A DNA stretch of 63,343 bases, counting the filler, from Blastocystis sp. subtype 4 (Eukaryota), in assembly GCF_000743755.1 (NCBI RefSeq). It is 45 parts of 45 records of this genome, joined end to end, with 100 filler letters (N's around TTAATTAATTAA, not from the genome) between each part and the next. Parts side by side here need not be neighbours in the genome. Positions count along the whole stretch, not along the records: positions 21,812 to 23,131 come from NW_014568682.1; 44 more parts are not named here. One strand, given 5' to 3'. The position numbers were made by a program, and so were the translations under genes. Position 1 is the stretch's first letter. Every line of letters begins with the position of its first letter. The notes beneath the pieces are model-generated. The model was not told where the DNA came from. It saw only the letters and a program-made list of their open reading frames with translations, and did not search any database. Shown here one piece after another: positions 2,916 to 46,317 of the stretch.

Positions 2916-4259
2916 AGTGGAATCATCGAAACTGACAGTATTCCAATCACTTGACACATCACTCTGTATCACCTTCCAATCTGTGTATTCAATCTGGAAA
3001 GGGAAATATGTTGAAAACACACTTGATACATAGATAGGTGAATAATTCTGACCATTCATTGTCATGATATCCAACTCCATTTCTCCATAATCAACAGTCA
3101 GAGTGTAACCACTTCCAGTCTGCCATCCATCTCCAAATGAATCAGCTCCTTGGAATGTGTAGATTCCATCATTCAAACAGAAATCAACATAGAAATAAGC
3201 ACTCGATACAGGGAATTTGTCTACAGATCTCAATACAGTTCCTGAGGTTCCTCTTCCTTCATACAATTTCCATGAGTTCTCATCTTTATTAGCGTCAGCT
3301 CTGATACGAACAGTCATCAATCCCTTGCCTCCAGTACATATTGAAACTGATAGAGAGATAGAATCAGTCACATCTCCTCCAGTCATCTTAGTAGCAGTGA
3401 TGGTGTAAGTTTGAGCACTACTCTCAACAGTGGCAGTACCTGAAATCCAACCAGTATGAGGATCCAACACAATACCAGCAGGAAGAGAAGGATTGATTCT
3501 GAAGTTCATATAACCATCTCCATTCTCAGGAATCACTTCAGACATCTCAACATTCTTGAATACAGTGACTGAAGAATCATAAGTGAAGTTAGGAATATCA
3601 ACCAACACATTATCAGCAAACAGATCCAGAGATTGAACTCTCCAATCACAAGAAGAAGGATTACCAGTACCAAAGTTCTCAAACTTGAATTGATTGTAAG
3701 GAGTATTGTTAGAGAAATAGATCTTATTCTTCTGACCAGGAGTTGAATAAGTGAGACCAGTGACTTCCTTCAGAAGTGTCCACTCATCTGTTCCCAAGTT
3801 ACGACCATACAAATTGAATTGGGTCGTCTCTTGGCCAATATAGATTGATGATGAAGAATAATAGTTCTGAATCTGAACAGAACTGATCCATTCACGACGA
3901 TTGTTTGATAGAGTCACTATGAAAGTATTTTCAGTGCAGGTTGAATAATAAATGGCACTTCCATAATACATATCGAAAGGACTTGTTGTAGTTCGAATTA
4001 GTCCAGTAGCTGTAATAGTGTATTCCCAGATATGAGATTCAGATTGTTCTGATGACATCAAACGAACCATTGCATCGAAATAGGATGTGGTGTAACTGTC
4101 AGTAATAGCAACAATCGCAACGCAATAGCAATCGTGTTACTTCCAGATTCAAGGAATGTAACTGGACTCGTTACTGTTGAAGTTTGCATTTGTTTACCTG
4201 GAAGAGTCACAACATAGTACTTCAAATCAGTATATGAATTGTCAACAGTGGATGAAGTG
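2916..4259 (-). CDS. Ig-like surface protein family, segment B (discoidin/galactose-binding-like domain + He_PIG Ig domain), fragment
   Basis: NNRREWISSVQIQN, PSLPAGIVLDPHTGWISGTAT, DSFGDGW; small indel near 4120. Confidence 0.8.
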
Positions 4260-4359: not shown

Positions 4360-5702
4360 AATATGGAATTGTTGCTTATCTGAATGGAGTTGAAGTGTAT
4401 CGAGATAACATGTCTGATGGACAACCATCAATTGATACTCTCGCTACTGCCAGTTACATTTCCTCTGATTATCATGGAGTCATTCGTCCTGCTTCTGATG
4501 TGAGTGAATCGAATGTGTTGTCTGTTGAAGTCCATTTCACAGATTCAAATCATGAAGAGATCATTCAATTCAATGGATTCTTATCTCTATTGGCTGGAAT
4601 GAACTCAACCAACAATTGCTTCGTTTATCCTTATACCACGGTCTCTGCTTCTACTGGTTTTACTAATCCTGATTATTCTGTCACTTGGACCCGAACTTCT
4701 TCTGCTTCTGCTTCCACATCTTCTCTTCCTGCCACCATCACCTATGGCTTCTCTGGATCTACTAAACCTATGATCAATTCTATGCGTATCTGGCCATATT
4801 CCAGTGCTTCTATGAATGTCCGTTCTTTCACATTAGAAGGATCTATGTCAACTACATCATCCTGGGAAATGATTTCTTCAGTCTCTGATGCTGAATACAC
4901 TGGTTATCAGTGGCAACAGTGGGATAGAGTGCAATTGGCTCCGCAGTATTCATTACTGAGATTTAGAGCTCAATCCGCTCAGTCTATATCTGCTTATCTT
5001 TATGAGATTCAGTTCATGATCTGTAATCGTCAGATTCCTTCAGTGATCGATTATCAAGAGGCATCATACTCATATATGCAATACTATGATTATGTCAGTA
5101 TTATTCCTCAATCCTATGGATACTATGGTTGTTCAATCTCACCTTCTCTTCCTGATGGAGTGAGTATTGATCCTGATTCCTGTATTATCTCCGGACGATC
5201 CAATGTGGTTTCTCCAATGACTTCCTATCAAGTAACGGCTCAGATGGAAACAACTCAAAGTCAAGCCACAATTAGTCTTGCTTTCATGGAATGTGCTGGT
5301 ACTTATTACAAGATTGTTCGAACATACAAGACCAGTCCTCAGAGTGAATTCTTCAGAATTCGTGATTCATCCAATGATAACATTGTGTATCAGATTCAAT
5401 CTGGTCATTCTCATCCTGCCAGTCAAGATTGGACTCATTATCTCTGTATCACTGTTGATCGATTTGATGTGATTTTTGATTCCACTTCCACCTACTGGAC
5501 TTCCGATTCTTATTTCTATATGTATTCTCTGTTACCTGATGGTGAAGAGGAGATGGTTCTGAAAGGACGATATGATTCTTTTGAGGGTAATGAACACGAT
5601 ATATATCTTCGTCGTCCTTCTATCAATCATTCAGAACAATGGTATTATAAGATGGGTGAAGTGCCTACCAATTGGTTTGGTGATGATACATCAGGTTGGT
5701 CT
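4360..5702 (+). CDS. Ig-like surface protein family, segment A, fragment
   Basis: YLNGVEVYRDNM, PSLPDGVSIDPDSCIISG, EQWYYKMGEVPTNWFGDD; open across the contig. Confidence 0.8.
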
Positions 5703-8763: not shown

Positions 8764-9549
8764 TAGTTGTGTTGAATCTCTGATTATTGATGATCATTTC
8801 AATCCTGATATATCATCATTGATATTGAACTATTCATTGATATCATTGAAACGAATTGACATAGGAAATCGTTGTTTTGATAAAGTGACTCGATTTGAGA
8901 TTGATGGATTGAATGAATTGAAGACTATCAGCATTGGAAGCGATAGTTTCAATTGTATTAGTCCCATTAGAAAACGTATGAATTGTTTGATAATGAATTG
9001 TGATCGATTAAGTGTTATTCACATAGGAGATCATTCACTCTATTACTATAAATCATTTGAATTGAAGAATCTTCCTTCTCTCCTTTCCATTCAATTGGAT
9101 AATGATGCATTCTGTTTTTGTCATTGGATAGTATTTGAGAGTATGAATGATTGAATGAATGATGAGTGAGATCTGATTCGACTTCAATCCATCACTCTTC
9201 GATATGAGACATTTTTTGGTTATTCTAGGACTATTGAATCAAATGAATTGATAATGAAGAGTATGAATGATACTGATGATTGATTGATGAGATCTCCCTT
9301 CTCTATCTACATTCAAAGGATATGGTAACAATTTCTGGGGTATAGGCAAAGTGCAATTGGATAGTAATGATTGATGATTGAATTTGAACTAGACATTCCA
9401 TCACTCACTGAAGATGGAATAAAAATGAATGGATCTGCATTCTTCTGTGTGGGAAAATTGGATAGTTCGAGTATGATTGATTGATTGATAAAGAATGAGA
9501 TGCTGATTCTCTTGATCAATTCATTCGACGAAAAAGTTGCAAGCTATGA
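8764..9549 (+). CDS. LRR protein family 1 (BspA-like), C-terminal part
   Basis: LKRIDIGNRCF and NLPSLLSIQL repeats; introns 9141-9170, 9261-9291, 9364-9392, 9471-9499; stop at 9547-9549. Confidence 0.75.
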
Positions 9550-10029
9550 ATGCATTAATCATTCTCCAATCTCAGATCCTTTTAGTGTCATTCTGCTATC
9601 CTCATGAATCAGCTGCTAGTTGTTAATTATATACTAATGAATTCATCCTCTTTGTCTATGATCAATCACAGTCTTATCACCCACACTCCATAAACATAGT
9701 ACTGAGTTGTTACATATCATTCGATTACTGTCAAAAGAATAAGTGGCTTGATTCATAACTGGCTAAGGTATGAGAATAATTGATCAACAGAATCACTGTC
9801 TTCCCAGAAATTTCTTCTTATTCGGTCAAAATACCTAATATAACCATTATATCATTGAAGTTGATCTTTTAGGCTAGTTTTAGTTGAAATAATGAAAATA
9901 ACGTAATAGGATCAAAATAGGAAGATTGATACCTGTTCAAAATAGGGATTAAAGGTGGTTATATTGATGAAGGTCCCATTAGTTTCAAGACCCCAAATTC
10001 TGTTGTTCCCACAAATAACTAGGCTACGA

Positions 10030-10101
10030 ATGGCTTTTGTTGCTCCTGCTGAACACGACGAGGTTGTCTGTGCCCTCGCTACTCTCTTGCTTGCTGATGG
10101 T
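10030..10101 (+). CDS. RPLP1: 60S acidic ribosomal protein P1, N-terminus
   Basis: MAFVAPAEHDEVVCALATLLLADG resembles the P1 N-terminal ELAC.YAALIL.D motif. Confidence 0.65.
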
Positions 10102-11668: not shown

Positions 11669-13001
11669 ATGGAGAAATGGAGTGATTGGAGATTTGTCGA
11701 CTTCATCCACTGTTGAGAATTCATATATTGATTTGAAGTACTATGTTGTGACTCTTCCAGGTAAACAAATGCAGACTTCAACAGTAACGAGTCCAGTGAC
11801 ATTCCTTCAATCTGGAAGTAACACGATTGCTATTGCCATTGTTGCTATTGCTGACAGTTACACCACATCCTGCCTTCAGAACAATCTGAATCTCATATCT
11901 GGGAATTCACTGCTACATCTACTGGAATCAGTGGAACTGCTGTTAGTCCTTTCGATATGTATCATGGAACAACTATCCTTTCTTCATCCTGTACTGAGAA
12001 TTCTCTGATTGTGACTCTATCAAACAATCGTCGTGAATGGATCAGTTCTGTTCAGATTCAGATTCCTTATTACTCTGGTAGAGATCAATGGATAACTCAA
12101 TTCGTTCTGTATGGTCGTAACTCAGATACAGATGAATGGACACTTCTAACCAATGTGACTGGTCTCACTTATTCGTTTGCTGGTCAGAAGAGAAGAGTCT
12201 ATTTCCCTAACAATACTCCTTACAATCAATTCAAGTTTGAGAACTTTACTTCTGGTAATCCTTGTGATTGGAGAATTCAATCTCTGGATCTGTTTGCTGA
12301 TAATGTGTTGGTTGATATTCCTAACTTCACTTATGATTCTACTTCAGTCACTGTATTCAAGTATGTTGAGATGTCTGAAGTGATTCCTCAGAATGGAGAT
12401 GGTTACATGAACTTCAGAATCAATCCTTCTCTTCCTGCTGGTATTGTGTTGGATCCTTCTGGTTGGATCTCAGGTACTGCCACTTCTGAGAGTACTACTC
12501 AAACCTACACTATCACTGCTACTAAGATGACTGGAGGAGATGTGACTGCCACTATCTCTCTCAGTTACAGCATGTACTGGAGGCAAGGGGTTGATGACTG
12601 TTCGTTTTAGAGCTGATAGTTTTCCGGCTGAGAATTCATGGAAGCTGTATGAAGGAAGAGGAACCACAGGAGCTGTGTTGAGATCTGTAAGCGAGTTCCC
12701 TGTGAAGAATGCTTATTACTATGTTGATTTCTGTTTGAATGATGGAATCTACACATTCCAAGGAGCTGATTCATATGGAGATGGTTGGGATAATGGAAGT
12801 GGTTACACTCTGACTGTTGATATGGGAGAGATGGAGTTGGATATGAATGAAGTACCGAACACTGGTATGAAGCCTGTGATTGTGACCACTGTGTTCTCAA
12901 CGTATTTCCCTTTCCAGATTGAATACACAGATTGGAAGGTGATACAGAGTGATGTGTCAAGTGATTGGAATAGTGTGAGTTTCGATGATTCCACTTGGAA
13001 C
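11669..13001 (+). pseudogene. Ig-like surface protein family, segment B, frameshifted copy
   Basis: Same motifs as the other segment-B copies; deletions shift the frame near 11870 and 12565. Confidence 0.75.
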
Positions 13002-13558
13002 NNNNNNNNNNNNNNNNNNNNNNNNNNNNNNNNNNNNNNNNNNNNTTAATTAATTAANNNNNNNNNNNNNNNNNNNNNNNNNNNNNNNNNNNNNNNNNNN
13101 NCTTCATCATTACCATCTTATCAATATCAATCAATTCGATGTCTTTCTGTCGTATATCAAGTGATAATTGATCATAGAAAGAGTAGGAAGAAAAGAAATC
13201 CGAGAATCCTTGTAAAACAACACTGAACAGAATCACAAGATTAAGAATCATTCTAGAATCACATGTTTGAATTCTCTATATTACTCCCTCTAATGATAGA
13301 CCAGTAGATCATAACATTTGATTGATATCAAAGCATTATCCATTTCCATATGAATGTGTATTTGTCTTCTCTTTCTCATTGTCATTCTATCAGTTATCAC
13401 AGATTCATTGTAACAATAGAAATGGATAGAATCAACAGAAATGATTGTGAGAAATGAATAGATAGTTGATGAGATTCTATTGACAATAGAATAAGAGAAG
13501 AATGATACTAAGTGTTGAAGATGAAAGAAATGATAGTATGAAATGGAATATTGGTTTA

Positions 13559-14104
13559 TTAGAATGAAATCAAGAACTGAATATCGATATTGGAATGAAT
13601 TCTATCATTATGAACAATGGTTGATAGTCTCAATTTGGATTCAAACATTGATAGATAATCATTGAAACTGTAGTTTCCATTTGGTATAACCACATTGCTA
13701 ATTGTACTATCACCATCACTCACTACTAGCTTGTTATTCGTATCATTGACTGAATATTGTTTGACAATGTTAATACCACTCATTTGATCATCTTCAATTC
13801 CTAGAATGTTCTTGATTTGATGAGCATTTGAGAAATCAATGGATTGAAAATCAGTGATATGAACTTTGTAAGTATCTTTCCCTGATATCACTAGATTGAA
13901 TATTGCATTTCCAGTATTGAGTTTATCCATCAATTGATTGATATCCCATGTTCCTGGATTGAATATGATTTGAGCACCATCAATAACAACAATCTGAGTG
14001 GATGTGATATTGTGTATTTTGGCATCTGCAAGAAGAGATAATCGAGTGATATAACTGTTGTTAGGGAGTTGAATATCATTATTGAAATTGTAGTATATGG
14101 ATTG
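13559..14104 (-). CDS. Polinton/Maverick-like minor capsid (penton-like) protein, 5'-truncated
   Basis: Frame is open from 14104: ...KIHNITSTQIVVIDGAQIIFNPGTWDINQLMDKLN...IKNILGI...VVIPNGNYSFNDY; the I.PG.Y/W and ILG motifs are typical of penton proteins; intronless. Confidence 0.5.
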   Translation of the reverse strand, partial: QSIYYNFNNDIQLPNNSYITRLSLLADAKIHNITSTQIVVIDGAQIIFNPGTWDINQLMDKLNTGNAIFNLVISGKDTYKVHITDFQSIDFSNAHQIKNILGIEDDQMSGINIVKQYSVNDTNNKLVVSDGDSTISNVVIPNGNYSFNDYLSMFESKLRLSTIVHNDRIHSNIDIQFLISF

Positions 14105-14149
14105 TTAATAGGAATGGTGATGTTTGTGATATTGATGAGATTGAGTTGA

Positions 14150-14509
14150 ATGACATCTTTGTACAATGTGAAGACAACGAATACAGTAGTAGCTCGAAAT
14201 GATTCAGGACCAAAGAATATCATTGTTGAAGCAGGATACTATGATCAAGAACCATTAGAAGAGATGTTTGATTCATATCTAACATTCACAGAAGATGATA
14301 TCCACATCCTTCTGGTCCTGCTTATGATTTAGTATTTCAACAAGCACCTGATTTGAGTCGAATATTGGGATTTGATGAAATTCAGGCAAGTGGTGTTAAA
14401 GGAAAAGGATCAGTAGATGTATCAAATGGATTGAATTGTATTCGAATCTACAGTAATCTGGTAAAGCAGATGATATCATTTGAAACAAGTCCATTAGTGG
14501 ATTGTATGA
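14150..14509 (+). pseudogene. Polinton/Maverick-like minor capsid (penton) protein, frameshifted
   Basis: LYNV...IIVEAGYYDQ...(frameshift at about 14297-14330)...LSRILGF...VDVSNGLNCIRIYSNLV follows the penton motif order. Confidence 0.6.
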
Positions 14510-16035: not shown

Positions 16036-17443
16036 ATTGGGTGATAGTAATACATATTTGAAATGGCAAAATCAAAGATATACAATGCCTGTTCCTGTAG
16101 TTGTATATGCAGATTTTGAATGTTGTATTGATAAAGACAAACAACATAAACCTATTCTATTATCATGTGTTACTGTATCAAAGATTGATAATGTGAAAAC
16201 AGAATACAAAGTGTTTCATGCTGAACATGAAGATGAAAGAGATTTGATACCATTCATTGATTATCTGATACATATTAAACAAGATGCTTCTTCCTATTTG
16301 TTTGATGAGACAAATCTGGAATGGAATGTTGATGTTGAAAAGGATTATGATAATACTAGTATATGTCCATTTTGTAATTGTGGTATTGGTTTCAAAGATG
16401 AAGTTGATCATAATAAGATAAGAATGAGTAGTTGTAGTAAGGATATCTATTTCAAAGAAGGTGAAATTGAAGAATTGATGAAAAGAAGAGGAGATGCAAT
16501 GAATTGGTATGCAGATGAATTAGAGAAACGTCGTAATGCTGATCCATTCTATCAAAAGCAAGTCCGTATGAAATTCCTTGAAACAATGGTTTTGGATGGT
16601 AGAGCAAATGATAAACAAGAGAATGAGTATGAACAATTGAAGAAAGAAACACGATTAGCAGAACGTGTCAAAGTGAGACATCATGCTCATGTATCAGGAG
16701 AATACAGTAATGGTGAATGTGTACGTTATTATAAAGCAGGAGAATACATTTGTACATGTTGTGATAAATGCAATTTGCAATTATCATTCAACAAGAAGTA
16801 TTACAAACTTCCTGTGTATTTCCATAATGGTATGCGTTATGATAATGCTTATATCATGAGACTATTAGGTAAGTATAAGGCTTTACATCCAAAAGCAGGC
16901 AAAATTGAAGAGATTCCTAGTTCAATGGATAAGGAAATGATGATTGAAATGAATGGTATTCAATTCAAAGATTCATACAAAATGATTTCTGCTCCTTTGA
17001 AACGTATTGTGAGTGATACTCTTGGAAATGATTTGGAGAATTATCGTTATACAAAACGATTATTGAAAGAGTATTTGGAAGATCATAACAAATCATATGA
17101 TCCAAAATTCATTGAATTGATGACTCGCAAAGAACCAATGTTCTATGGTTTGATTACATCTTACAAATCTCTATCAACCAGACACATTCCAAAACAAGAA
17201 GAATGTTATGATGATTTGTCACAATCATTTATGTGTAATGAAGATTATGAACATATGAGATTGTTATGGAAGACATTTCATATTCGTAATTGGGGTGAGT
17301 ATTATGAATTGTACAATCTGTTGGATGTGACATTACTTGCAGATTGTTTTGAACATTTCCGAGATTCAACTATGAAATCCTTTGGTGTTGATTCTGCTCA
17401 TTATCTAACAACACCTCAAATGTCATATTCATTGTTTCTGAAG
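16036..17443 (+). CDS. Protein-primed family B DNA polymerase of Polinton/Maverick type (exonuclease region with endonuclease VII-like Zn module), fragment
   Basis: YADFE, CPFC...KVRHHAHVSG...CDKCNL, YFHNGMRYD, FKDSY, YNLLDVTLLADCFEHFR, DSAHYLTTP; intronless, very AT-rich, open across the contig. Confidence 0.9.
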
Positions 17444-17999
17444 NNNNNNNNNNNNNNNNNNNNNNNNNNNNNNNNNNNNNNNNNNNNTTAATTAATTAAN
17501 NNNNNNNNNNNNNNNNNNNNNNNNNNNNNNNNNNNNNNNNNNNATAAAATGATGATTTGAATGGGATACGTTGAATGAGAGATTATCAGAGATGACACAA
17601 TTCATATTCAAATCATGATGATTCGATATAGAATGAGATGTGTTGTGGATGGTTTGAGTTGATGAATAGGAGTACAATCAATCACTTCAATCTATCTCAT
17701 GTATTCACATAGGATATGAATGATATCATCAATATAATACACACCATTCTCTCTTATCCACTTATCATCCTATTCATCACCACAATTGTCATTGTTTTCA
17801 TCATTCAATCCTCTCTACTTCCATTATGAACAATGAATGAAATGATATGATATGAAACTCAGCATCCATGATTCAAGAATGAATGACAAGATTGTTTCAT
17901 TCATTATTAACAAATACAATCAATACCTTAGTATATTACACAACTAGCTGATAACCTTTTATTGAAATGAATGATAGGTTGAAGATTAGAAGAATCTGA

Positions 18000-18867
18000 T
18001 TCTTGTGGACTACTCTCTTTCTTTGGTACATTTCTACTTTGTCGAATGAACTGATGAAGAGATCCAGCATCTCAATCATTATTGATCAATCAACCATACT
18101 AGTACTATTCAACTGCCACACATTATTGAATGAATCATCCAACTTTATTCCATCTTCAGTGAGTGATGGAATATCTAATTCAAATTCAATCATCAATAAT
18201 CACTCTCCAATTGAACTTTGCCTATCCTATTGAAATTGACGATGCCATCAATTCGAGATAGAGAAGGAAGATCTAATCAATCAATCATCATTATCACTCA
18301 TACTCTTCATTATCAATTCATTCGATTCAACAGTACTACCATCACCACCAAAAGCATATGATCCATCAGTGATGGATTGAAGTCTAGTCAGATCTTATTT
18401 ATCATTCATTCAATCATTCATACTCTCAAATACTATCCTATGACAATAACTGAATACATACCAGCCCAATTCAATGAATATGAGTGAAGGGAGATTCTTA
18501 CATTCAAATGATTCATACCTACTACATGAATCCCTTCCAATGTGGATCTCTCTTAACTGATAACAATTCATTATCAAACATTTGCTTCCTTCTCTAGGAC
18601 TATTATTGAGAGAGAAACATTTCCATCCAATGCTGATAGTCTCCAATCCATTCAATCCATCAATCACAAATTGATTCACTTTCTCCATACAAGCATACCT
18701 AATGTCAATTCGTTTCAATGATATCAATGAATAGTTCAATATCAATGATGATATATCAGGATTGAAAAGATCAGCAATAATCAGAGATTCAATACAACTA
18801 GTAACAATCAATTCACAATCATCAATCCATTTCATTCTCATATCATCATTAACATCAATAATAACAT
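18000..18867 (-). CDS. LRR protein family 1, C-terminal part
   Basis: MKWIDDCELIVTSCIESL, LRR units and the same intron pattern as 8764-9549. Confidence 0.75.
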
Positions 18868-20390: not shown

Positions 20391-21711
20391 GAAGTAGGGA
20401 ATGATCCTCTAGCAGCCTGAGACCAACCTGATGTATCATCACCAAACCAATTGTTAGGCACTTCACCCATCTTATAATACCATTGTTCTAAAACACTGAT
20501 AGAAGGACGACGAAGATAGTGAGTATGAACATTGCCTTGATAACTGTCATATCGTCCTTTCAGAACCATCTCCTCTTCATCATCAGGAAGCAGAGCATAC
20601 ATATAGAAATACGAACCAGAATACCAATAGGTGAAGGTGGAATAGAATGTGACATCAAATCGATCCACAGAAATACAGAGATAATGAGTCCAATTTATAT
20701 TAGCAACTTGATTATGGTCTGGTTGAATCTCAAAGAGAATATCATTGTTGGATGAATCACGAATACTGAAATACTCACTATGTGGATTTCCTTTATTCGT
20801 TCTGAGAATCTTGTAGAATAATCCTGAACAGTCATTGAATGCAATAATAAGTGAAGCCTGAAGTTGAATAGATCCTATGACTGATGTGACTAGATATGAA
20901 GTTGAAGGAGTGGTAACAGTTGATATTCCAGAAATAATGCATGTGTTGGGATCAATGGACACTCCGTCAGGAAGTGCAGGTGAGATTGAACAACCACTTA
21001 GACCATGCATTGTAGGTGAAATATTCACTTCCTCATATTTAATATAATAGGAATACTGAGTTTGAGGATAAGAAATAATGGTAGGAGGAATACGATTACA
21101 AACAAGGAGCTGGAATTCATACACCTCTACAGATTTCGATTGAACATTGAATCGAATCCGAGAATACTTGGGAAGTGCTGTAATTAAATCCCATTGAGCC
21201 CATATGTTAGCTGTATAAGAGTGATCAGAAACAGTTAAAACGGTTTCCCAATTTGATAGTGTTGACATTGCACCATCAATCGAAAAACTCTTAGGACTTA
21301 ACAAGTAGTATGTATAGGGCCACAAACGGAATGAATTAATTAGAGGAAGAGAAGAACCTGATATCTCAAAAGTGAGTGAACCAGGAGGAGAAGAGAGATA
21401 GGCTGCTGTAGCATGTGTATATGATATAGCATTGACAGGATTTGTGAATCCTGTAGCAGTAACAGTTAACTCATTTGGAACGACAAAACAATTGTTTGTT
21501 GAACTCATACCAGCCATTAATGAGATGAATCCATCAAATTCAATATAGGCAGAATAATTCATACTCAGAGGATGGACTTCAACAGCGATAATATTCGACA
21601 CAGTCACATCAGTAGCAGGACGAATGAGTCCATGATAACCATACGATGTATAGCTTCCTGTAGCTACAGTACTGTTTGTTGGTGTTCCATCAGCCATGTT
21701 ATCTCGATACA
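20391..21711 (-). CDS. Ig-like surface protein family, segment A, fragment
   Basis: YRDNMADG, PALPDGVSIDPNTCIISG, QWYYKMGEVP. Confidence 0.8.
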
Positions 21712-21811: not shown

Positions 21812-23131
21812 TTGTTGAATGAAGTGATTATTGGTGAGAATAGTCTGAGTTCATTGAGTCATTCGTGAGGAATTGAGTGTTGATTGATGACTAGATACAC
21901 AGTGAATAATTGGGATTCATATTTGAGTATTCCTTTGTATGTAACTGCACTGACTGTAACTGCCAATTCATGTAATGAAGATAGCATTAATGTCATTGAT
22001 CTGAGTTCATTCAAGTTTCTTCGAAGTGTTGTGATTGGTAATAGCTGTTTCAAGTATGTTCGGATATTCTCGATAGTTGGACTCAATTGGCTTGAATCAG
22101 TCAGTATTGGCACTTACAGTTTTGGGAGTGATGGTTCATTATGGGAGGGCAGTGAATTCAAGATTGTGAATTGTCCACAATTGAAGAGCTTGAGTATTGG
22201 ATATCGTTCATTTGGTCGATACAATGGATTTGAATTGTCTGAGTTGCCTCAACTGATATCTGTTGTAATGAGCAGTCTGTATGATTATGGTTGTTTTCGA
22301 TATGCTCGTAAAGCAGTATTCAGAGGTATGAATGATGGAAGAGATGGATTGTAGACTTGCCATCATTGGAGACTATTGATCTAGGAAATACTGCCTTCCA
22401 GTGGCTAGAATCTGCTGTATTTGAAAGTATGTGATAATAGGAATTGAACATATCAGATCTTCCTAAGTTGACAGTGTTACGATTACGAGAATATTGCTTT
22501 GTTGGTTCGACTTCTACAAAGATAACTGATGTAATTCCCTATTACTATAAGAATACTCTTATCATGAGGAGTATGTATGTTAACAGTTCTAATCATCAGA
22601 TCTACCATCTTTGAGGACACTAAGCATTAGTTATGATGTATTTAGGAATATGGGTTTTGTAACGTTAGAAAGTAACACATTTGGAACTATCAAACAATAG
22701 ATGTTCGATCACCTCTCACTATTGAAGTATCTGGTTCTAATCATTTCCAATACACTCACACTCTTGAAGTGAATAGTTGATGATTGTATTGTTGATTGAG
22801 ATGTAGATGCATCTAGTCTTGCTCAGTTGATATCATCCAAAAGTGTTTATGTGAAAGCAACAGGTGAAGTGATTGATCTCAGTTCAATTCCATTATCAGT
22901 TGAGGATCTGAGGTTTGAGGATTATTCTCAAGTGGATTCAACTGTTCTATCATTCAATCTGTCTCCATTCTCTCATCTCAAATCCGTCACTATTGGAGAT
23001 GACTCTTTTGATTCACCAATTGAGTTCATAGTCAATGGACTGAATGAATTGATTTCAATTCATATTGGAATGAACTCATTCACAAGAAGCAGAATGTCTC
23101 GTGCTGAAAGATGGAGTCGAGAGTTTCATGT
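21812..23131 (+). CDS. LRR protein family 2 (BspA-like), internal fragment with six tiny introns
   Basis: LRSVVIGNSCF and LESVSIG repeats; introns include 21865-21894 and 22326-22354. Confidence 0.75.
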
Positions 23132-23231: not shown

Positions 23232-23899
23232 GCTTCTGTTCAATGGCATTATTGAAGTCAGATCCGAAGGCCAGATGAGTAATTGACACATCATCCAACT
23301 TGATGTGATACTTCTCAGCACGCTCCTCCAAAAGTTCACTGATACGCTCAGAAACCTTTTCTCGTTCTGTTAACAACTGTTCGGCGTTGTATTGAGCTAC
23401 TACTGCCTTCATGATCTCATTACCAAGAGAAGGAAGCACACGATCACGATAATCAGGACCTACTTCACGATGAATTGTCGACAAATGATCCAAATCAGGA
23501 TGTGTCAACACTCGAAGAGAAATGCCCACTGTTTGCAAATCCTTTGTACCAGTCTCTGTAGAGATCTCACGAGGAGTGGTACGAATATCATAAATGTAAG
23601 GGTACTTACACTTCACCAAACCAACCATTTCCTACCTGAATCAGAGGAATTCGGAAATGAGTTCCCTCAGCAACTGTTTTAGGCAATACTCCACGGAAAC
23701 GATCGAAGATGACAGCTCGTTCGCCTCCATCAACTACAATCATTACATTTCCAGTCTAATCAAAATCTACCATCGTAAATACACTGATCGAAACAGACCA
23801 AACCGGCTCCAATACCAATGGACCATTTTGCTACCTTTGTTAACTAGAATTCATTATAGAACGTTCAAACAATCCTACCATACGAGCAGCCTCTGCCAT
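23232..23899 (-). CDS. PHB1: Prohibitin 1, 5' part
   Basis: Spliced: MAEAARMLTKVAKW...[18 protein letters not shown]...[22 protein letters not shown]...GTKDLQ; introns 23844-23878, 23734-23770, 23605-23635. Confidence 0.9.
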
Positions 23900-23919
23900 G
23901 CTTGCTTTCAATCGTTAGT

Positions 23920-23927
23920 AACAAACA
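23920..23927 (-). promoter_or_regulatory. GU-rich polyadenylation element (TGTTTGTT) of RPS6
   Basis: Exact motif 32 nt after the RPS6 stop. Confidence 0.65.
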
Positions 23928-23959
23928 AATGTCATGATTACTGTGGCAATTCCATCCTT

Positions 23960-24597
23960 TTACGCCTTGGAAAGTCTCTTCGACACACGAGCGCTCTTTC
24001 TCTCCTTGTTCAGTTGCTCCAGACGCTGTTTGTACTCAGCAGCCTCCACACGAGCCTTCTCCATAGCAGCCTTCTTCTCAGCCAGACGAGCACGCTTGTG
24101 GCACAACACACGATGAGTCACCAGACGCTGGATCTTTGGAGCCTTGTCTCGCTTGTGACCATTATGTTCGAAGGTACGACGAATCACGAACTTGCGAACA
24201 TCATCCTCCTTCGTCAGACCAAACAACTTGCGAATGTGACTAGCTCTCTTAGGACCCAGACGACGGGGCTTTGCAGATGCTTCGTCTGTCAGACCCGGAA
24301 TCTCCTGTTCACCCTTCTTCACAATCATCAAGTTCAGAACACAAATGTCCGAACCCACAATACAACCACGAACAGACTTGCGCTTTCTCTCACCCTATAC
24401 ATCATTCCCTTCCATTGAGAACAACATCACGACGCGCACGATAACAAGAACTGCCGTCAGCAAGAAGGAGACGCACACGATGGTTGCAAAGAACACCTTG
24501 CTTCATAGGGAATCCCTGCTTATCGTTTCCTCCAGTAATGCTACTTCCTCAACCAAACCAACTAAACACTACCGGAAAACATAACCCTTGAATTCAT
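23960..24597 (-). CDS. RPS6: 40S ribosomal protein S6, 3' part
   Basis: [53 protein letters not shown]; introns 24541-24572 and 24395-24425. Confidence 0.97.
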
Positions 24598-27455: not shown

Positions 27456-27696
27456 NNNNNNNNNNNNNNNNNNNNNNNNNNNNNNNNNNNNNNNNNNNNT
27501 TAATTAATTAANNNNNNNNNNNNNNNNNNNNNNNNNNNNNNNNNNNNNNNNNNNNACATTTGCATTCTTCTTGATTATGAATAGAACTGCTTCTTTTGGT
27601 TCATTCATTTTCTCTGCTTTTGAACTGTATTCTTCAGGAGAATACACTTTGAATAAATCAAATAGTTAATGACTCTAAGATGAATGGGATTGAACA

Positions 27697-27845
27697 ATGA
27701 GTTCGTTTAGCCATTTGAACGTAGATGCAGTTCGTATAAGTGATATGCGTTCGGTTCAGTTTGATGTGCGTGATCGTTATGGTGAAGTAGTGTCAATCGC
27801 TTCAGATATCTACATCAACATCCAATTTACATATTCAACAAACAG
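27697..27845 (+). pseudogene. C-terminal fragment of a Polinton-like penton protein
   Basis: MRSVQFDVRDRYGEVVSIASDIYINIQF matches the penton C-terminal pattern i.i.l.D..G..v......i.l.f. Confidence 0.5.
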
Positions 27846-27999
27846 ATTCTACTACATTTGTTTATTGTGTTTTAATTTGACTCATTTTGCATTATCCACT
27901 ATGGTGTCGAACGAACAGATCAAGAAAATGAGCATCTTAATAATTATCAATTCACAATCATACTCGAACTGTTCAATTCTCTTACACCATTGAAAGCAC

Positions 28000-28870
28000 T
28001 ATTCAATTGTATTCCTTCATCAGCGAGAGATGGAATGTCTAGTTTAAAAACAGTCACAAACATCACTCTCCAATATTACCTTCCGTATACCCAAGAAATT
28101 GCAACCATCTCCTTTGAATAGAGATAGAGAAGGAAGATCTCATCAATCAATCATCACCATCATTCAAACTCTTTATTGTCAATACAATCGAGTCAGTTGT
28201 CTTATAATCGCCTTGAAGAGCTCCCTCCCTTAGAATGATGGACTGAAGTCGAGTCAGATCTCATTTATAAGTCATACAACCATTCATACTCTCAAATATA
28301 ATCGAATGACACTTAAAGAATGCATATTTACCCAATTGAATGGAGATGAGAGAAGGAAGATTCTTCAATTCAAATGATTCGTACCAATAGAATAAACATC
28401 TTCCAATGTGGATTTCTTTTAATTCATCACAGTTCATTATCACACATTTGCTTCCTCTTCTTGTCTCCTCGCTGACCACTCTCACCCATGCATATTGATC
28501 CAATTGAATGGATTTCAGAGAATGGAGATTATTCAATTCAAAGGATTCATACCAATAGAATGATATGTATCCAAAGTGGATTTGTTTCAATTGATCACAA
28601 TTCATTATCAAACATGAGCTTCCTCGATTATTCTCATTATCGAGATAGAAACTTTTCTCGCCAATGTCTATAGTCTCCAGTATATTCAATCCATCAATCA
28701 CAAATCGATTCACTTTATCAAAACAACGATTTCCAATTTCAATTTGTTTCAATGATATCAATGAATTGTTGAATATCAATGATGATATATCAGGATTGAA
28801 ATGATCATCAATAATCAGAGATTCAATACAACTAGTAACAATCAATTCACAATCATCAATCCATTTCATT
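28000..28870 (-). CDS. LRR protein family 1 with an internally duplicated LRR block
   Basis: RGSSCLIMNCDQL...YESFEL block occurs twice; family intron pattern follows. Confidence 0.7.
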
Positions 28871-28970: not shown

Positions 28971-30290
28971 TATGAATGAAGCAACTATGATTAACTGGGC
29001 ATTTGAAGCGAATAGCATGACAAGTGTGTTGAATGCTCCAGTTGGAATAAGCAAGTTGATGATTGGTGACAATTGTTGTGATGAAGTCAATTTCACTTCT
29101 CTGGATCTGAGTCGATTTGTTCATTTGAAGTCATTGGTGATTGGAAAGAACTCTCTGAATGAGATTGTGACAATCACAGGTGTTGAATATGAATTGTTGA
29201 ATGAAGTGATTATTGGTGAGAATAGTCTGAGTTCATTGAGTCATTCGTGAGGAATTGAGTGTTAATTGATGACTAGATACACAGTGAATAATCGCAATAC
29301 CTTGTTGAGTATTCCTTGGGATGTAACTGCACTGACTGTAACTGCCAATTCATGTAATGATAATACCATTAATGTGGTTGATTTGAGTTCATTCAAATTT
29401 GTTCGAAGTGTTGTGATTGGTGATAGCTGTTTCCAGTATGTTCAGATATTCTCGATAGTGGGACTCAATTGGCTTGAATCAGTCAGTATTGGTTCTTCCA
29501 GTTTTGGGGGTACTGGTTCATTATGGAAGGGTAGTGAGTTGAAGATTGTGAATTGTCCACAATTGAAGAGTTTGAGTATTAGAGCTGTTTCATTTGTTCG
29601 ATACAATTGGTTTGAATTGTCTGAGTTGCCTCAACTGAAATCTGTTGTAATGACTAGTAATGCTTATCATGGTTGTTTTCGATATGCTTGTAATGCAGTA
29701 TTCAGAGGTATGAATGATGGAAGAGATGGATTGTAGACTTGCCATCATTGGAGACTATTGATCTAGGAGATGGTGCCTTCCAATATGCAGAATATGTAGT
29801 ATTTGAAAGTATGTGATAATAGGAATTGAACATATCAGATCTTCCTAAGTTGACAGTGTTACTATTACAGACTTGGTGCTTGGAAGGTTCGACTTCTACA
29901 AAGACAATTGATGTAATTCCCTATTACTATAAGAATACTCTTATCATGAGGAGTATGTATGTTAACAGTTCTAATCATCAGATCTAGTGATGATGTGTTT
30001 GAGAATATGGGTTTTGTAAGGTTAGAAAGTATCACATTTGGAAGTATCAAACAATAGATGTTAGATCACCTCTCAATATTGAAGTATCTGGTTCTAATCA
30101 TTTCCAATACACTCACACTGTTGAAGTGAATAGTTGATGATTGGATTGTTGATTGAGATGTAGATGCATCTAGTCTTGTTCAGTTGATATTATCCAGAAG
30201 TGTTTATGTGAAAGCAACAGGTGAAGTGATTGATCTCAGTTCAATTCCATTATCAGTTGAGGATCTGAGGTTTGAGGATTATTCTCAAGT
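28971..30290 (+). CDS. LRR protein family 2, paralogue or allele of 21812-23131; possibly disrupted
   Basis: Collinear with 21812-22930; lacks 25 nt of exon near 29985. Confidence 0.7.
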
Positions 30291-30390: not shown

Positions 30391-31197
30391 TGTGATCTGG
30401 TTCACATACTCCTGATCTCCATTCTTCATCTTGATAATATCATGCTTAAGCTGAGTGTTCTTCAAAATACGCAAATCAGGAGTTACACTGGATACATCAC
30501 CTGAGTATGTATGAAGAGTTAGATCACATCGAACAATCGAACATTCATCCTTATTGATAGCCAGATTAGAAGAAGTTCCACCAGATGTAGTATAGATTCC
30601 TGAACCATCCGATGCCATCTGGAAGAACTCATCTGGTTCAACGAATGTCAAATCTGCTTTCAACATCTTCAGATTGATGAAAGATGGACTGTTACATCCT
30701 GCCAAAACTTGACTTAAAGGAACATTCAGATCGAAATCCCATTCAGTATCACTATGTTTTGTCAATGGGATATCTCCAGTAAAGATACTTGATCCACTAC
30801 TATTGTACCCAAATTCGGTCAGACCAACAGCCTGATCATGAGCATTCTTGGTTGTGAACAATTGGGTCAACACATTTCGTGCTTGACCAATGTACTGAGA
30901 TTCATCCTGTAATACAACATTCATAACCTCATTATTCTCATTGATGTACTGATAGTTCACTGTACTGTTCTTCACAATGCCTGCAGGTTGTTGAGCTGCA
31001 TATGCAACAATTGAAGCCTTACTGGACTGAGAAGCAGTGAATTTCACACGCACTTTGAATGTGAAGTAGCTGTTGTAGAGATCATAGAGATGATCATCCT
31101 GTGTGCTGGATAGTTGGACAGTGTATTGATTAACACTGTTGAAAGGATGTGGAGTAGTAGTGAGTGTTCTGTTCTCAAATAGATGAACAAGCGACAT
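30391..31197 (-). CDS. Polinton/Maverick-like double jelly-roll major capsid protein, N-terminal part
   Basis: YTVQL...DHLYDLYNSYFTFKVRV, FDLNVPLSQVLAGC, LKADLTF, SIVRCDLTL follow the strand pattern of Polinton-type MCPs; intronless. Confidence 0.6.
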
Positions 31198-31254
31198 TTC
31201 TTTACTATAGTAAGAGAAAAAGATGCAAAGTGTTTTTTACTTTGAATAAGTAAA

Positions 31255-31686
31255 ATGAATGATCCATTAGAGTTTAGTCCATGGCAAAACAATCCTTTAG
31301 ATTGGATGACAAGAGAATTGAACAAGAAGAATGCGAAATTGAAAGGATATACGATATAACAAATCTGTTCCATTTGATAGAATCTTCAAGTATGACACAA
31401 ATGTTGTTACAAAGAATCCAGCATCTGTCAATTACATGAAACCATTCTCCTTTGATCTTACATACACAAAGATGAACACCGAAAGACCAAAACTCGTTGA
31501 CAAGTATGTGAACAATTCTACTAACAAACGATTAAGAATCGCTGATAGGATGAGGAAAATGGTTGGAGATGTGAAAGTGAATCGAGCTGTTGATATGTCG
31601 AATATACCTTCTGAAGAACAAGATAAGGTATTGAAGATTCTTGGTATGACTGAATCTCAACTCAAGGATACTCCTCCAGAGAACTA
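31255..31686 (+). CDS. Hypothetical virus-element gene divergent from the capsid gene; one frameshift near 31350
   Basis: MNDPLEFSPWQNNPLDW...KG then a second frame RYNKSVPFDRIFKY...MKPFSF open to the contig end; intronless. Confidence 0.45.
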
Positions 31687-34613: not shown

Positions 34614-35540
34614 ATGGAATGATTGAATATGAAGGACTATTCAAAGATGATGTTATTATTGATGTTAATGATGATATGAGAATGAAATGGATTGATGACT
34701 GTGAATTGATTGTTACTAGTTGTATTGAATCTCTGATTATTGATGATCATTTCAATCGACCTGATATATCATCATTGATATTGAACAATTCATTGATATC
34801 ATTGAAACAAATTGAGATAGGAAATGATTGTTTTAAGAATGTGAATCGATTTGAGACTGATGGATTGAATGAATTGAAGAGTTTGGTTATTGGAAAGAAC
34901 AGCTTCTGTCTTGATTGGGTTAATAGAGAAGGAAGCAAATGTTTGATAATGAATTGTGATCAATTGAGTGATACTCACGTTGGAGAGAATTCATTCAAGT
35001 ATTATGAATCATTAGAATTGAAGACTCTTCCTTCTCTGATGTCCATTGAAATGGATGGTTTTGTATTTGAGTGGTGTCATAGGATAGTATTTGAGAGTAT
35101 GAATGATTGAATGAATGATGAATGAGATCTTATTCGACTTCAATCTATCATTCTTGGATATCAGATTCTTGATGGTGATTTACATACTGCTGAATCAAAT
35201 GAATTGATAATGAAGAGTACAAATGATGTTGATGATTGATTGATTAGATCTTCCTTCTCTATCTACATTCAAAGGAGATGGTAACAATTTCTTCTACATA
35301 GGCAAAGTGATATTGGAAAGTGATGATTGATGATTGTATCTGAACTAGACATTCCATCACTCACTGATGAAGGAATAATGATGGGCGACAATGTTTTTAG
35401 TAATGTGAAAGAATTAATCTGCTCAAGTATGATTAAATGAATTGATAATGATTAAGATGCTGATTCTCTCGATCGATTCATTCAACAAAAGACAAAGAAT
35501 AATAATAAGGAACAAAATAAGAAATGTGTAATAATCTAAT
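34614..35540 (+). CDS. LRR protein family 1, C-terminal part
   Basis: MIEYEGLFKDD, MKWIDDCELIV, LRR units, family introns. Confidence 0.75.
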
Positions 35541-36006
35541 GAAGTCAATATACTTGTTAATTAGAATAAGGATTTGAATGTTTCAAGTACAAATTGGAAG
35601 CAGACAAACTGTCACAAACGTGAGCCTCCAACCCTGGATAGCTATAAAGGGAAGTGGTAGCAGACAAATCAGTCATGAAAAAGCCCATACCAAAAAGGCA
35701 AATAGCCATAAAGAAGCTCGAAAGGGCAAGCATTTTGATAACAAATTGGAAACATATCCAACCAATTTCATGTCAAATGATGGATACTTGACATCTTTCT
35801 TCTCTCACATAACAACATGTGAACCATCTTCTCGAGTACTAACTGTAAGAGGATTATACTTATTAGATTTGCTAATTCGTGTATCATCCTTCTTTCTGAA
35901 AGTGCCNNNNNNNNNNNNNNNNNNNNNNNNNNNNNNNNNNNNNNNNNNNNTTAATTAATTAANNNNNNNNNNNNNNNNNNNNNNNNNNNNNNNNNNNNNN
36001 NNNNNN

Positions 36007-37397: not shown

Positions 37398-38684
37398 AAG
37401 TATCATCACCAAACCAATTGGTAGGCACTTCACCCATCTTATAATACCATTGTTCTGAATGATTGATAGAAGGACGACGAAGATAATGAGTATGAACATT
37501 GCTTTGGTAATTATCATATCGACCCTTCACAACCATCTCCTCTTCACCATCAGGTAACAGAGCATACATGTAATAATATGAATCAGACATCCAATAAGTA
37601 GATGTGGAATAGAAGGTGACATCAAATCGCTCGACAGTAATACACAAATATGTTTCCCAATCAAGATAAGCAGGATGAGTATGACCAGATTGAATCTCAT
37701 AGAGAATGTTATCATTGGATGAATCACGAATTCTGAAATACTCATTCTGAGGACTACTTTCGTAAGTTCGAACAATCTTGTAATAGGCACCAGTACATTC
37801 GGTAAATGCAATACTGATTGAAGTCTGAAGTGAGGTTGTTCCCATTGTTGATGTAATCTGATAGGATGTCGATGGAGAGGCAACAGTTGAAACTCCAGAA
37901 ATGATACAGGTATTGGCATCCATTGTCACACCAGAAGGAAGTGCAGGAGAGATAGTACAGCCACTGTAACCATACATTGTTGGTGCAATACTCACTTGTT
38001 CATAGGTACTGTAGAAGGAATACTGATTTTGAGGATAGGATATACTGGTAGGAGGAGCACGATTACAAACAAGGAATTGGAGCTCATAAACATACACACT
38101 TCCAGACTGTGATGATTGAGCATTGAATCGAATCAAAGGATACTTGGGAAGTACACTCACTAAATCCCATTGAGCCCATGTACTTGATTCATATGTTTGT
38201 TCAGAAATTGAGAAAACAGTCTGCCAACTAGATGTTGTTGACATGGCACCTTCAATTGAAAACATTCTAGGACTTAAGGTGGGACTTGTATAAGGCCACA
38301 CACGGAAAGAATTGATTTGAGGAATGGATCCTGAAATCTCAAAAGTGAGTGAACCAGGAGGAAAAGAGAGATAGGCTGCTGTATTTCGCGTAAACGTTAT
38401 AGCATAGGTAGGATTTGTAAATCCTGTAGTTGTAACAGCCATATCATTTGGAACGACAAAACAATTGTTTGTTGAACTCAAACCAGCCATGAGCGAGAGG
38501 AATCCATCAAATTGAATGAATCTAGTAGTTGTAAGATCCATAGGATGGACTTCAACAGCCAAAACACTCGATACGGTCACATCATTAGCAGGACGAATGA
38601 GTCCATGATAACCATACGATGTATAGCTTCCTGTAGCTACAGTACTGTTTGTTGGTGTTCCATCAGCCATGTTATCTCGATACA
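37398..38684 (-). CDS. Ig-like surface protein family, segment A, fragment
   Basis: Close paralogue of 20391-21711 and 58090-59339. Confidence 0.8.
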
Positions 38685-41554: not shown

Positions 41555-42862
41555 TCTCTTTCAATCCAACTCCACCTTGAATCACAATAGACTCAACACA
41601 ACAACAAATCTCATTCAATTCATTCATTCTTGATATCCACAATACTGATGAATACAGAGACAACAAGTGTTCAGAAGGAGGAATACAACTATTAACAGTG
41701 ATTAAGTATTCAAGAGAATCAGCATCTTTATCATTATCAATCAATCAATAATACTTGAACAAATCAATTCTTTCACTTCACCAAAGTATCCTCTCATCGG
41801 AATGCCTTCTAGACTAAGGGATGGGATATCTAGTTCAAACACAATCATATTCATCACTTTCAACTCTCACTTTTCCAATATTGCAGAAATTCCATCCATT
41901 CATTTCACATAGACAAGGAAGATCTGATCAACTAACCCTATTTTTCAACTCTCACTTTTCCAATATTGCAGAAATTCCATCCATATCCTTTCATTTCACA
42001 TAGACAAGGAAGATCTGATCAACTAACCCTATTATCATCAACCCATACCTTTCATTATCAATTCATTTGATTCAACTGTTTTCTCATCACCTTCAAAAGT
42101 CCATGGTCCAAGATACAATGATGATAATAGAATAAGATCTAATTCATCACTCAATCATCATTCCAACTCTCTAATACCACAGAATGACAATACTTAAGGA
42201 CATTAGCACCCAATCGAAGTGATAGAAGAGAAGGGAGATTCTTACATACAAATGATTCATAATAACAGAATGATNAACTCTCTAATACCACAGAATGACA
42301 ATACTTAAGGACATTAGCACCCAATCGAAGTGATAGAAGAGAAGGGAGATTCTTACATACAAATGATTCATAATAACAGAATGAATCATATCCAATCTGG
42401 ATTTCTTTCAACTGATTACAATTCATTATCAAACATTCACTCCCTATTCTTGTAGATTTAGTATCTAAGACCCTCCTTACAATCTTCACACTCTTCAATT
42501 CATTTAATCCATCTATCACAAATCGATTCACTTTCCTCAAACACCCATTTCCAATCTCAAGTCTCTCAACTCCTCCTATACAATCATTATCATATACTTT
42601 CCAATTCATTCCACTTCTTAATCGAACACCATATTCACCATCCTTCCATCTTCCTCTTCTTATCACTTCTCCTTTCTCATTCAATTCTTATACATATCCA
42701 TGTCTGTGTCCTTTCCTCCAATGACCTACATACAATACACTCTTTCCATCACTTCTCTATTCTATTCCTTTCCCTCTTCCAACAAATCCTTTCTTTGGAT
42801 TTCTTTCAAATCCTCCTTCATATACTCTCATTCCTTTCTTATCATATTCAATCATCAAATCT
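41555..42862 (-). pseudogene. MORN-like + LRR family 1-related gene fragment with local duplications
   Basis: GRWKDGEY and RLEIGNGCLRKVNRFVIDGLNEL; duplications at about 41858-42033 and 42165-42384. Confidence 0.55.
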
Positions 42863-43389
42863 NNNNNNNNNNNNNNNNNNNNNNNNNNNNNNNNNNNNNN
42901 NNNNNNTTAATTAATTAANNNNNNNNNNNNNNNNNNNNNNNNNNNNNNNNNNNNNNNNNNNNCAGACCGACTCCAATTACAACGAATCCATTCCATCTTG
43001 TTCTGGAATTGCTCATTTTGTTCTCTTTTTATTCATCTATTCTATTCTATTTCATTCATTCTCACTTATTTCAAATGAAAGATGTATGATTTTGATCTCT
43101 AATATAAGTAGTGGACCAGTTGGTTTGGTGTAACCACTTTATGGTCTTCTGAACGAATGATAGATTCACTGTAATCATGTTTTGTTTCAGCTATCGTCAA
43201 CTGTGTTAAGTTCACAGTAGTATTCTATTTCTAGCGATATTTCTACTGGTCGTAGATTCTCTAATTGTCTAATACTTGAGAAATCAGATGAACAAGATGA
43301 TTGACTGTGGTGCTAATACTTCTGCGTGGAGAGATTATAATCAATAAAGAAGGAGTGTAAATCAGTATATGGCACAACAAAGAGATGGT

Positions 43390-44238
43390 TGTTTATCCTT
43401 CAGGTGAATGAATTGGTCAAACGAATCAGCATCTCAATCATTATCAATCCATCAATCATACTAGAAATATCGTAATTTCTCGTTTTATCGAATGTACCTA
43501 TCAGTTGTATTTTATCTTTAGTGAGTGATGGAATGTCTAAGTTAAATACAATCATCAATCATCACTTTCCAATGTCACTTGCCCTATATAATTGAAGTTA
43601 CCGCCATTTCCTTTGATTAGAGATAGAGAAGGGAGATCTCATCAGTCAATCATCACTATCATGCATACTTCTCATTATCAGTTCATTCGATTCAACATCC
43701 TCTCCACTACCATCAAGAGCATATAATCCAAGAGTGATGGATTGAAGTTGAGTCAGATCTCATTCATCATTCATTCAATTATTCATACTCTCAAATACTA
43801 TCCTATGACACCAATAGAATACATATTTATCCAATTGAATAGATATGAGAGAAAACAGATTATTCAATTCAAATGATTCATACCACCAATAGAATGACTG
43901 ATATCCAATGTGGATTTCACTCAATTGATCACAATTCATTATCAAACATTTGCTTCCTTCAATCTTCTCATCAAGATTGAAGCTATTCTTTCCAATGCTG
44001 ATAGTCTTCAATTCATTCAATCCATCAATCTCAAATCGAGTCACATTCTTAAAACAATCATTTCCAATGTCAATTTGTTTCAATGATATCAATGAATTGT
44101 TCAATATCAATGATGATATATCAGGATTGAAACCATCATCAATAATCAAAGATTCAATACAACTAGTAACAATCAATTCACAATCATCAATCCATTTCAT
44201 TCTCATATCATCATTAACATCAATAATAACATCATCTT
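43390..44238 (-). CDS. LRR protein family 1, C-terminal part
   Basis: Same framework and introns as the other copies. Confidence 0.75.
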
Positions 44239-45607: not shown

Positions 45608-46317
45608 NNNNNNNNNNNNNNNNNNNNNNNNNNNNNNNNNNNNNNNNNNNNTTAATTAATTAANNNNNNNNNNNNNNNNNNNNNNNNNNNNNNNNNNNNN
45701 NNNNNNNCTTTCTATTCTTATCATTCTCATTATTCTAATCATCATCATTCTCATCATTCTATCAAAGAAGAAGAAACATACTCTACCAAAGAAGTCAATA
45801 GAAGAACTGAAATCTGTTGAGAATCGTATTCCAAATCCATCTCATTCTGTATAATCAATCATTTGTTATTTCAACTCTTTGTTCACATTCATATCTTCAT
45901 TCTTATTCATCACAATTCATTCCATTATCAATCATCTCAGTACATTCTATCACACATATTCTCATTCAATAACAATCATATTCATCTCTCTTATCATCAT
46001 CAATCCTATCATCTCAATCATTCTATGTCACAACACATTCTATCATTCTTCAATACAACACATGAATACAAGATCGATTGAATAGAGTGATACAAATCTC
46101 ATTCAATCCATTCTTCTAACTCCTAATCAATCATTGTAAACTACTAATAACAAGAATCTCTATTGGGATCAACACACTATCTACGAATCGAATCAGATTG
46201 GAATGTATGATAGTGAATAAAGAGATTGAGTTAAGCATCATTCAACTATTCTTTGTTTTGTTCTCTCAATTCAACATTCATTTCAATCAACTAGATCCTT
46301 ATCTCAACTTCAAGAAT

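Follow-up and report, generated by a model that had tools for sequence, protein, structure and literature searches.

Paralogous LRR genes of Blastocystis subtype 4 that vary in one loop per repeat, and a copy destroyed by strand-specific C-to-G change

The window, i.e., the whole 63,343-nt stretch of Blastocystis sp. subtype 4 DNA that was analysed, is made up of contigs of ~1.3 kb joined by N linkers (47 pieces were counted). Two of these separate contigs carry related fragments of a long LRR gene, copy A and copy B, which are 89.8% identical over 1123 bases. Each fragment is truncated at both contig ends, so neither gene is complete and the two are not neighbours. All six introns of copy A have GT..AG ends, and the long-read gene model P0257 supports all six positions, its protein being joined at each one. 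The contigs of an RNA run (X20) were unspliced throughout, with zero splice joints, and have no bearing on expression. The features are listed below.

Copy A, 21812..23131, plus strand: internal fragment of a long LRR gene, limited by the contig ends; 380 codons, seven exons, open frame
Intron 1 of A, 21865..21894, plus strand: 30 nt, one difference from B
Main exon of A, 21895..22325, plus strand: five repeats, with differences from B at 33 of 143 residues
Variable loop of repeat 1 (A), 21959..21988, plus strand: 3′ of the first beta strand of the repeat
Variable loop of repeat 2 (A), 22037..22066, plus strand
Variable loop of repeat 3 (A), 22109..22138, plus strand: in-frame indels between copies
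Variable loop of repeat 4 (A), 22199..22228, plus strand
Variable loop of repeat 5 (A), 22271..22312, plus strand: highest diversity (pi 0.39 in 22262-22291); in-frame indels
Intron 2 of A, 22326..22354, plus strand: 29 nt, identical in B
Variable loop of repeat 6 (A), 22384..22413, plus strand
Intron 3 of A, 22427..22456, plus strand: 30 nt, identical in B
Variable loop of repeat 7 (A), 22486..22515, plus strand
Intron 4 of A, 22571..22599, plus strand: 29 nt, identical in B
Variable loop of repeat 8 (A), 22629..22658, plus strand
Intron 5 of A, 22672..22700, plus strand: 29 nt, two differences from B
Variable loop of repeat 9 (A), 22730..22762, plus strand
Intron 6 of A, 22776..22806, plus strand: 31 nt, one difference from B
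3′ exon of A, 22807..23131, plus strand: nearly invariant, common to all copies
Copy B, 28971..30290, plus strand: paralogous fragment
Six introns of B, 29247-29276, 29708-29736, 29809-29838, 29953-29981, 30029-30057, and 30133-30163, plus strand
Site of a 25-nt deletion in B, 29984..29985, plus strand: directly 3′ of intron 4; A 22603-22627 is missing, giving a frameshift with stops

The long-read protein P0160 is intact at the site of the deletion in B, and the deletion junction was found in none of 47 related loci; the frameshift of B is therefore either strain-specific or an assembly error.

As the earlier note had claimed, the six introns of A and B are nearly identical, differing at 4 of 178 bases, and its count of differing residues in the main exon was reproduced, with the differences clustered along the exon (window variance of 7.3 vs. 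2.5 in 5000 permutations; p = 0.0002). Over all aligned exon bases, 87 of 916 differ between the two copies (Fisher p = 0.0005 against the introns). The contrast is, however, not specific to introns, since fourfold sites of the pair (5/102) and intron sites (4/178) differ at similar rates (p = 0.29). Much of the pS of the pair sits in loop codons that were hit more than once, and clean fourfold sites resemble the introns, so that the introns sample a low background and are not specially frozen. They appear frozen because introns 2-6 are located in the conserved half of the repeat, away from the loops that are putatively under selection. The note had also proposed diversifying selection, against which it would have counted a dS as high as dN together with tiny introns that are generally this conserved. 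The first half of this combination was found in the pair (pS 8.9%, pN 9.7%, ratio 1.10, p = 0.89; gene-wide dN/dS 1.05-1.10), and diversifying selection across the whole pair was not borne out; when sites were divided by class, the loops exceeded 1, and the proposal retains moderate support for loop codons only.

Homologues of the main exon were found in 313 of 324 candidates. The closest named ones are Blastocystis subtype 4 proteins, and the sequencing runs that contain the DNA include mouse and rat gut metagenomes. Copy number was judged from the long-read proteins of another strain and from contig depth. Ten distinct haplotypes were verified, consisting of eight long-read proteins (different contigs, one strain), A, and P0173; they are 72-85% identical over codons 19-183, and seven of them match haplotypes present on 7-22 metagenome contigs each. 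The main-exon ORF of A was unchanged on 24 other contigs and that of B on 7 other contigs and in P0160. A and B are members of a dispersed set of paralogues, at least ten in number, of a long Blastocystis subtype 4 LRR gene, and these are stable between isolates. More than 4 kb of additional coding sequence lies upstream in the full gene. As judged by eye, several long-read copies have upstream proteins that differ at only a few of 420 residues, and 3.6 kb of upstream sequence is 99.9% identical between locus L012 and three other loci, to which assembler collapse may contribute. Over 21874-22810, runs X1 and X3 contain a shorter, more diverged paralogue in which the terminal exon follows immediately on intron 6 (loose end at 22810).

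Other families were also seen in the window. A second LRR family, in which the repeats occur with MORN, is found at 8764-10101, 17544-18867, 27556-28870, 34614-35906, 41555-42862, 42963-44238, 45708-47007, and 56739-57989; by eye, its introns are likewise conserved and its loops variable, and the member at 27556-28870 is internally duplicated. Intron-free, AT-rich ORFs at 16036-17443, 30391-31686, and 13102-14509 gave the impression of a B-family polymerase fragment and of virus or Polinton-type structural genes.

The 47 related DNA loci that were compared comprised 20 normal, 20 C-to-G, and 7 mixed loci. The 20 C-to-G loci carry a pseudogene copy that lies in a C-to-G tract. Full-length C-to-G copies have G at 155-156 positions where A has C and have no C where A has G. 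At 1059 sites invariant in normal copies, scored in 16 loci with 4 partial or flank-mixed C-to-G loci left out, 123 of 140 C were replaced by G, 8 by T, and 8 were unchanged; none of 211 G became C, and other bases were altered at 1-4%. The direction of change is fixed as C to G by the 29 stop codons in the reading frame of this copy. The tract is 4.1 kb long (L022 2712-6879) and contains 82 C vs. ~1290 G between normal flanks. It passes the LRR stop into a downstream stretch whose coding sense is on the opposite strand; the physical strand on which C became G stays the same there, and the tract stops at the point where homology is lost. The opposite-strand neighbour has a motif that resembles the end of a phosphatase 2C. 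All sequence contexts were hit, GC the least (TC, 91/100; AC, 39/48; CC, 15/18; GC, 11/23).

The divergence of the dead copy from 14 normal copies at sites other than C was 5.6-8.4%, equal to that among normal copies (mean 6.2%), which indicates either a burst or a bias in rate that clearly exceeds one order of magnitude, and not ageing; slow decay was ruled out on these grounds. A sequencing or assembly artefact was also ruled out, given that the copy occurs in 20 loci under different assembly accessions and in all four runs examined, one of them from mouse gut. Only 8 variable sites were present among the 16 loci, which, together with the occurrence in four of four runs, suggests that the copy may derive from a single event and have been amplified later. 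A strand-specific C-to-G process destroyed one copy of the gene, and the tract is real. Two groups of paralogous long-ORF fragments, 71-89% identical, were also observed in the window, the first at 2916-4259, 11669-13001, 44339-45607, 49889-51148, 54030-55284, and 60781-62015 and the second at 4360-5702, 20391-21711, 37398-38684, 51249-52573, and 58090-59339; a putative Ig domain (PF05345) is present in one member, and similar sequence flanks the C-to-G locus.

Diversity was counted in 22 copies, namely A, B, and the 20 normal loci, leaving out the 7 mixed and 20 C-to-G loci; the normal loci are short-read assemblies, many of them probably chimeric, so that trees and pairwise counts are pseudo-replicated. 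In this set, pi was 0.9-1.1% in introns vs. 7.8% in exons, 1.8% at clean fourfold sites, and 2.3% at exon bases no more than 15 nt away from an intron, and none of 42 fourfold sites of the 3′ exon was variable. Each repeat has a single peak of variation, covering the loop that follows the first strand together with the five residues past a conserved Phe, and a mask of these positions outscored all 379 circular shifts. The site classes were defined on the repeat motif once the alignment was already known. Loops had a pN of 12-16% and a pN/pS of 1.6-1.8, with a bootstrapped difference pN minus pS whose interval lies above zero, and the framework had a pN/pS of about 0.6. A codon likelihood computed per repeat gave an omega of 1.5-2 for loops (lnL 3.1 above omega 1) and about 0.5 for the framework (lnL 6.5 better than omega 1). 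With a conservative minimal-change count, the ratios were 1.27-1.34 for loops (p = 0.2-0.3) and 0.6 for the framework (p = 0.02). Indels in the exons keep the frame in all 20 normal loci. Taken as a whole, the copies combine low background divergence with amino-acid change centred on the loops and purifying selection on the framework; positive selection in the loops would fit these values and has moderate support. The pattern is a real case of a known evolutionary mode, in an undescribed family.

The assignment of the repeats to an LRR subclass rests on Pfam, phmmer, and Foldseek. Pfam LRR_8 was above cut-off in P0001 (60.8 bits) and P0257 (51.6 bits), and the isolated main exon of A gave no match in a Pfam search. 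LRR_5 barely passed in one protein, P0190 (27.9 vs. a cut-off of 27.7 bits), and was not found by Pfam in P0257 or P0001; LRR_8 and LRR_EndoS score higher. The predicted structure of P0257 is a regular beta solenoid (pLDDT 76) with two beta strands per repeat and variable loops between the strands; a single-sequence fold of P0001 was poor (pLDDT 53) and was excluded. Foldseek matches were LRR proteins (TLR7/8/9, CroV588), with a TM of only ~0.15 over the full length. In the predicted solenoid, the variable loops would share one edge, as follows from the repeat geometry, and they may have a role in binding. With regard to the putative role as receptor or antigen in an arms race that the note had proposed, no signal peptide, membrane segment, or hydrophobic segment >1.7 was found in the available parts of P0190, P0257, and P0188, the true N-terminus of which lies outside them; in P0125, which is distantly related, the N-terminus includes a hydrophobic stretch. 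Relatives from other subtypes join the same repeats to a kinase, to MORN, or to a probable signal peptide and a Thr-rich stalk, and these varied partners suggest that the LRR array is likely a portable binding module.

The verified haplotypes share identical segments across different long-read paralogues, and the nearest neighbour changes from repeat to repeat. A PHI-like test on the ten haplotypes gave p = 0.04, although with protein only it is a weak test. In the DNA loci, 32% of informative site pairs 10-19 nt apart were incompatible; this spacing is too short for assembler joins, although recurrent mutation may contribute to the incompatibility. We consider it probable that A and B come from a set of ten or more stable paralogues that are near-identical save for one loop per repeat, conversion homogenising the copies and diversifying selection keeping the predicted binding loops distinct. 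Gene conversion, as judged from the sequences, would continually homogenise the copies, diversifying selection would retain the loop differences, and the retained loops would line one edge of the predicted beta solenoid and provide a repertoire of binding surfaces. A separate strand-specific C-to-G process acts on the same LRR family, having killed one copy and likely shaped the 5′ exons of intact ones.

The alternative that comes closest, which we nevertheless regard as unlikely, holds that the loops simply lack constraint and readily acquire indels and multi-base changes, that the 30-nt introns are held by splicing constraint, and that there is no positive selection. It is consistent with the gene-wide ratio of 1.10, with the non-significant loop ratio of 1.3 in the conservative count, with a synonymous diversity that is also raised in loops (7-10%), and with the main text of PMC10690189, according to which almost all introns of human subtypes are ~30 nt. 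The pN of loops is, however, several times the neutral 1-2% seen at introns and clean fourfold sites, the codon likelihood prefers an omega above 1, and the indels remain in frame. As for splicing, all 12 intron C of A read G in the C-to-G copy, albeit a dead one.

Our early impression was that the exons are free mosaics of 10-17 recurring cassettes per repeat, and programmed or very fast cassette shuffling per strain or cell, in the style of VLR, vlsE, or VSG, was initially favoured. In its favour, 313 clusters were found, and among the matches listed (120 of 313 homologues, leaving out the mis-spliced model P0007), all 121 six-module combinations, i.e., those of A, B, and 119 exon proteins, were distinct, with near-zero linkage between modules. 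Contigs that are part normal and part C-to-G, however, switch within C-free windows of 22-66 nt, as expected for assembler joins, which suggests that most singleton haplotypes are likely chimeras. Moreover, whole haplotypes are unchanged on 7-24 contigs and in the long-read genome, contigs with a single loop share one low depth (42-45) below a much deeper conserved intron, as paralogues would, and no cassette array was found in the 47 loci, each of which gave one match. Fast mosaic shuffling was dropped given the C-free switch points and the stable haplotypes in contigs and long-read proteins, and we now think it improbable; the 313 apparent mosaics are probably for the most part assembly chimeras, through which metagenome assemblies would inflate the LRR family ~thirty-fold.

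There is similarly little to recommend the idea that loop diversity arises mainly from the C-to-G mutator itself. Among normal copies, minor alleles are indeed C to G at 15 of 189 C vs. G to C at 7 of 286 G (p = 0.007), but these minor G alleles may stem from chimeras with the dead copy, C/G changes account for 22 of 200 biallelic sites with transitions predominating, and 9 of the 91 differences from A to B are C to G. An allelic origin of A and B at a single locus, or an artefact of assembly, would agree with both being small unplaced contigs and with the diploidy of Blastocystis reported in the main text of PMC10690189, but either is very improbable and largely refuted by the ten or more haplotypes spread over separate contigs of a single long-read assembly and by the recurrence of both ORFs in other assemblies.

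With conversion and diversifying selection as the preferred reading of A and B, the C-to-G process can be considered in its own right, including in intact copies, the 5′ exons of which are poor in C.

Nearly C-free 5′ exons with open frames, L011 1-2100 and L012 1-1210: C content climbs gradually toward the 3′ end

The three 5′ exons of the intact gene contain 514 codons with no stop, ~23 stops being expected per 228 shuffled codons. They have almost no fourfold C, and Pro, Gln, His, Thr, and Ala make up 1-2% of residues vs. ~20% elsewhere. TCA codons, in which C to G produces a stop, were kept (0.045 vs. 0.047 per codon), whereas other C codons fell from 0.363 to 0.095 per codon (p = 0.0004). 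The C-to-G process likely shaped the 5′ exons of intact copies. A genome-wide C-to-G bias was ruled out, 25 long ORFs of the window having similar fourfold C and G. Other C-depleted tracts in the window were noted at 42391-42860 and 45811-46150 (minus strand) and at 62531-62830 (plus strand), the first of which corresponds to the 5′ region of a MORN-LRR gene that has a long open frame. At 23232-24597 (minus strand) lie what are presumably ribosomal protein S6-like and prohibitin-like genes; by eye, the introns of these housekeeping genes are rich in G and almost devoid of C when read on the sense strand.

Comparison with known systems places both parts of these results. The BspA/TpLRR proteins of Trichomonas and Entamoeba are an expanded LRR family of gut protists, with a G-x-x-x-F motif after the strand and Pfam LRR_5. 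The Blastocystis family is likewise an expanded gut-protist LRR family with the same motif after the strand, but LRR_5 is marginal or missing in its proteins and does not dominate the repeats. Lamprey VLR and Borrelia vlsE have variable cassettes between conserved spacers, and the Blastocystis genes too alternate variable units with conserved spacers; they differ in that their haplotypes are stable across hosts and in that no cassette archive was found in the 47 loci. In MHC class I, the introns of paralogues are more alike than the exons, with conversion set against selection. PMC3213168 describes the same for primate L/M opsins, where paralogue introns are more alike than exons and synonymous sites, and, in gibbons, gene conversion is opposed by selection on exons. 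Both differ from the present case in that their introns are long; those of Blastocystis are 30 nt, and identity extends through the 5′ and 3′ exons in ten or more copies. In the plant NLR family RPP8, as described in 10.1101/694240, LRR paralogues exchange sequence via intergenic gene conversion and their diversity requires balancing selection, much as in the reading proposed here for the Blastocystis family. In the latter, no NB-ARC domain was seen, and the LRR geometry differs, with two beta strands per repeat in the model.

Fungal RIP inactivates repeated genes by C-to-T change. The Blastocystis process also inactivated a repeated gene, but the change is C to G (123 sites vs. 8 C to T). APOBEC kataegis, which involves UNG and REV1 according to passages of PMC4303225, resembles the tract in that cytosine mutation is strand-coordinated within a bounded, kilobase-sized stretch. 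In Blastocystis, however, ~88% of C were converted, C to G outnumbers C to T 15-fold, all contexts were hit, and the change is germ-line and fixed, so that the tract exceeds known deamination/REV1 chemistry in completeness and purity. The nearest known chemistry is nonetheless the one in which single-stranded DNA is deaminated, the uracil excised, and the site bypassed by REV1 (same passages of PMC4303225), and by analogy the cause is probably loss of cytosine in long single-stranded DNA followed by REV1-type bypass. We put forward, as a tentative proposal only, that repeated LRR genes are the target of a C-to-G hypermutator directed at particular loci and at one strand, in effect RIP with transversions: one pass would convert about nine-tenths of the C on a 4-kb strand and could kill the copy, and milder or repeated passes filtered by selection would lead to the near C-free 5′ halves. 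Beside variable LRR receptors maintained through conversion, this could form a possible protist immune system.

A search of the openly accessible literature returned no report on Blastocystis LRR families or C-to-G tracts. The main text of PMC10690189 contains no mention of 'leucine' or 'gene conversion', and that of PMC5608401 none of leucine, LRR, BspA, skew, or antigenic. No eukaryote is commoner in the human gut than Blastocystis, and paralogues that vary at one predicted surface are defined candidates for what Blastocystis recognises or for what recognises Blastocystis. A near-complete, one-strand, heritable C-to-G conversion goes far beyond ordinary kataegis and matters more than the repertoire; the tract would indicate new genome-defence or repair chemistry in a stramenopile.
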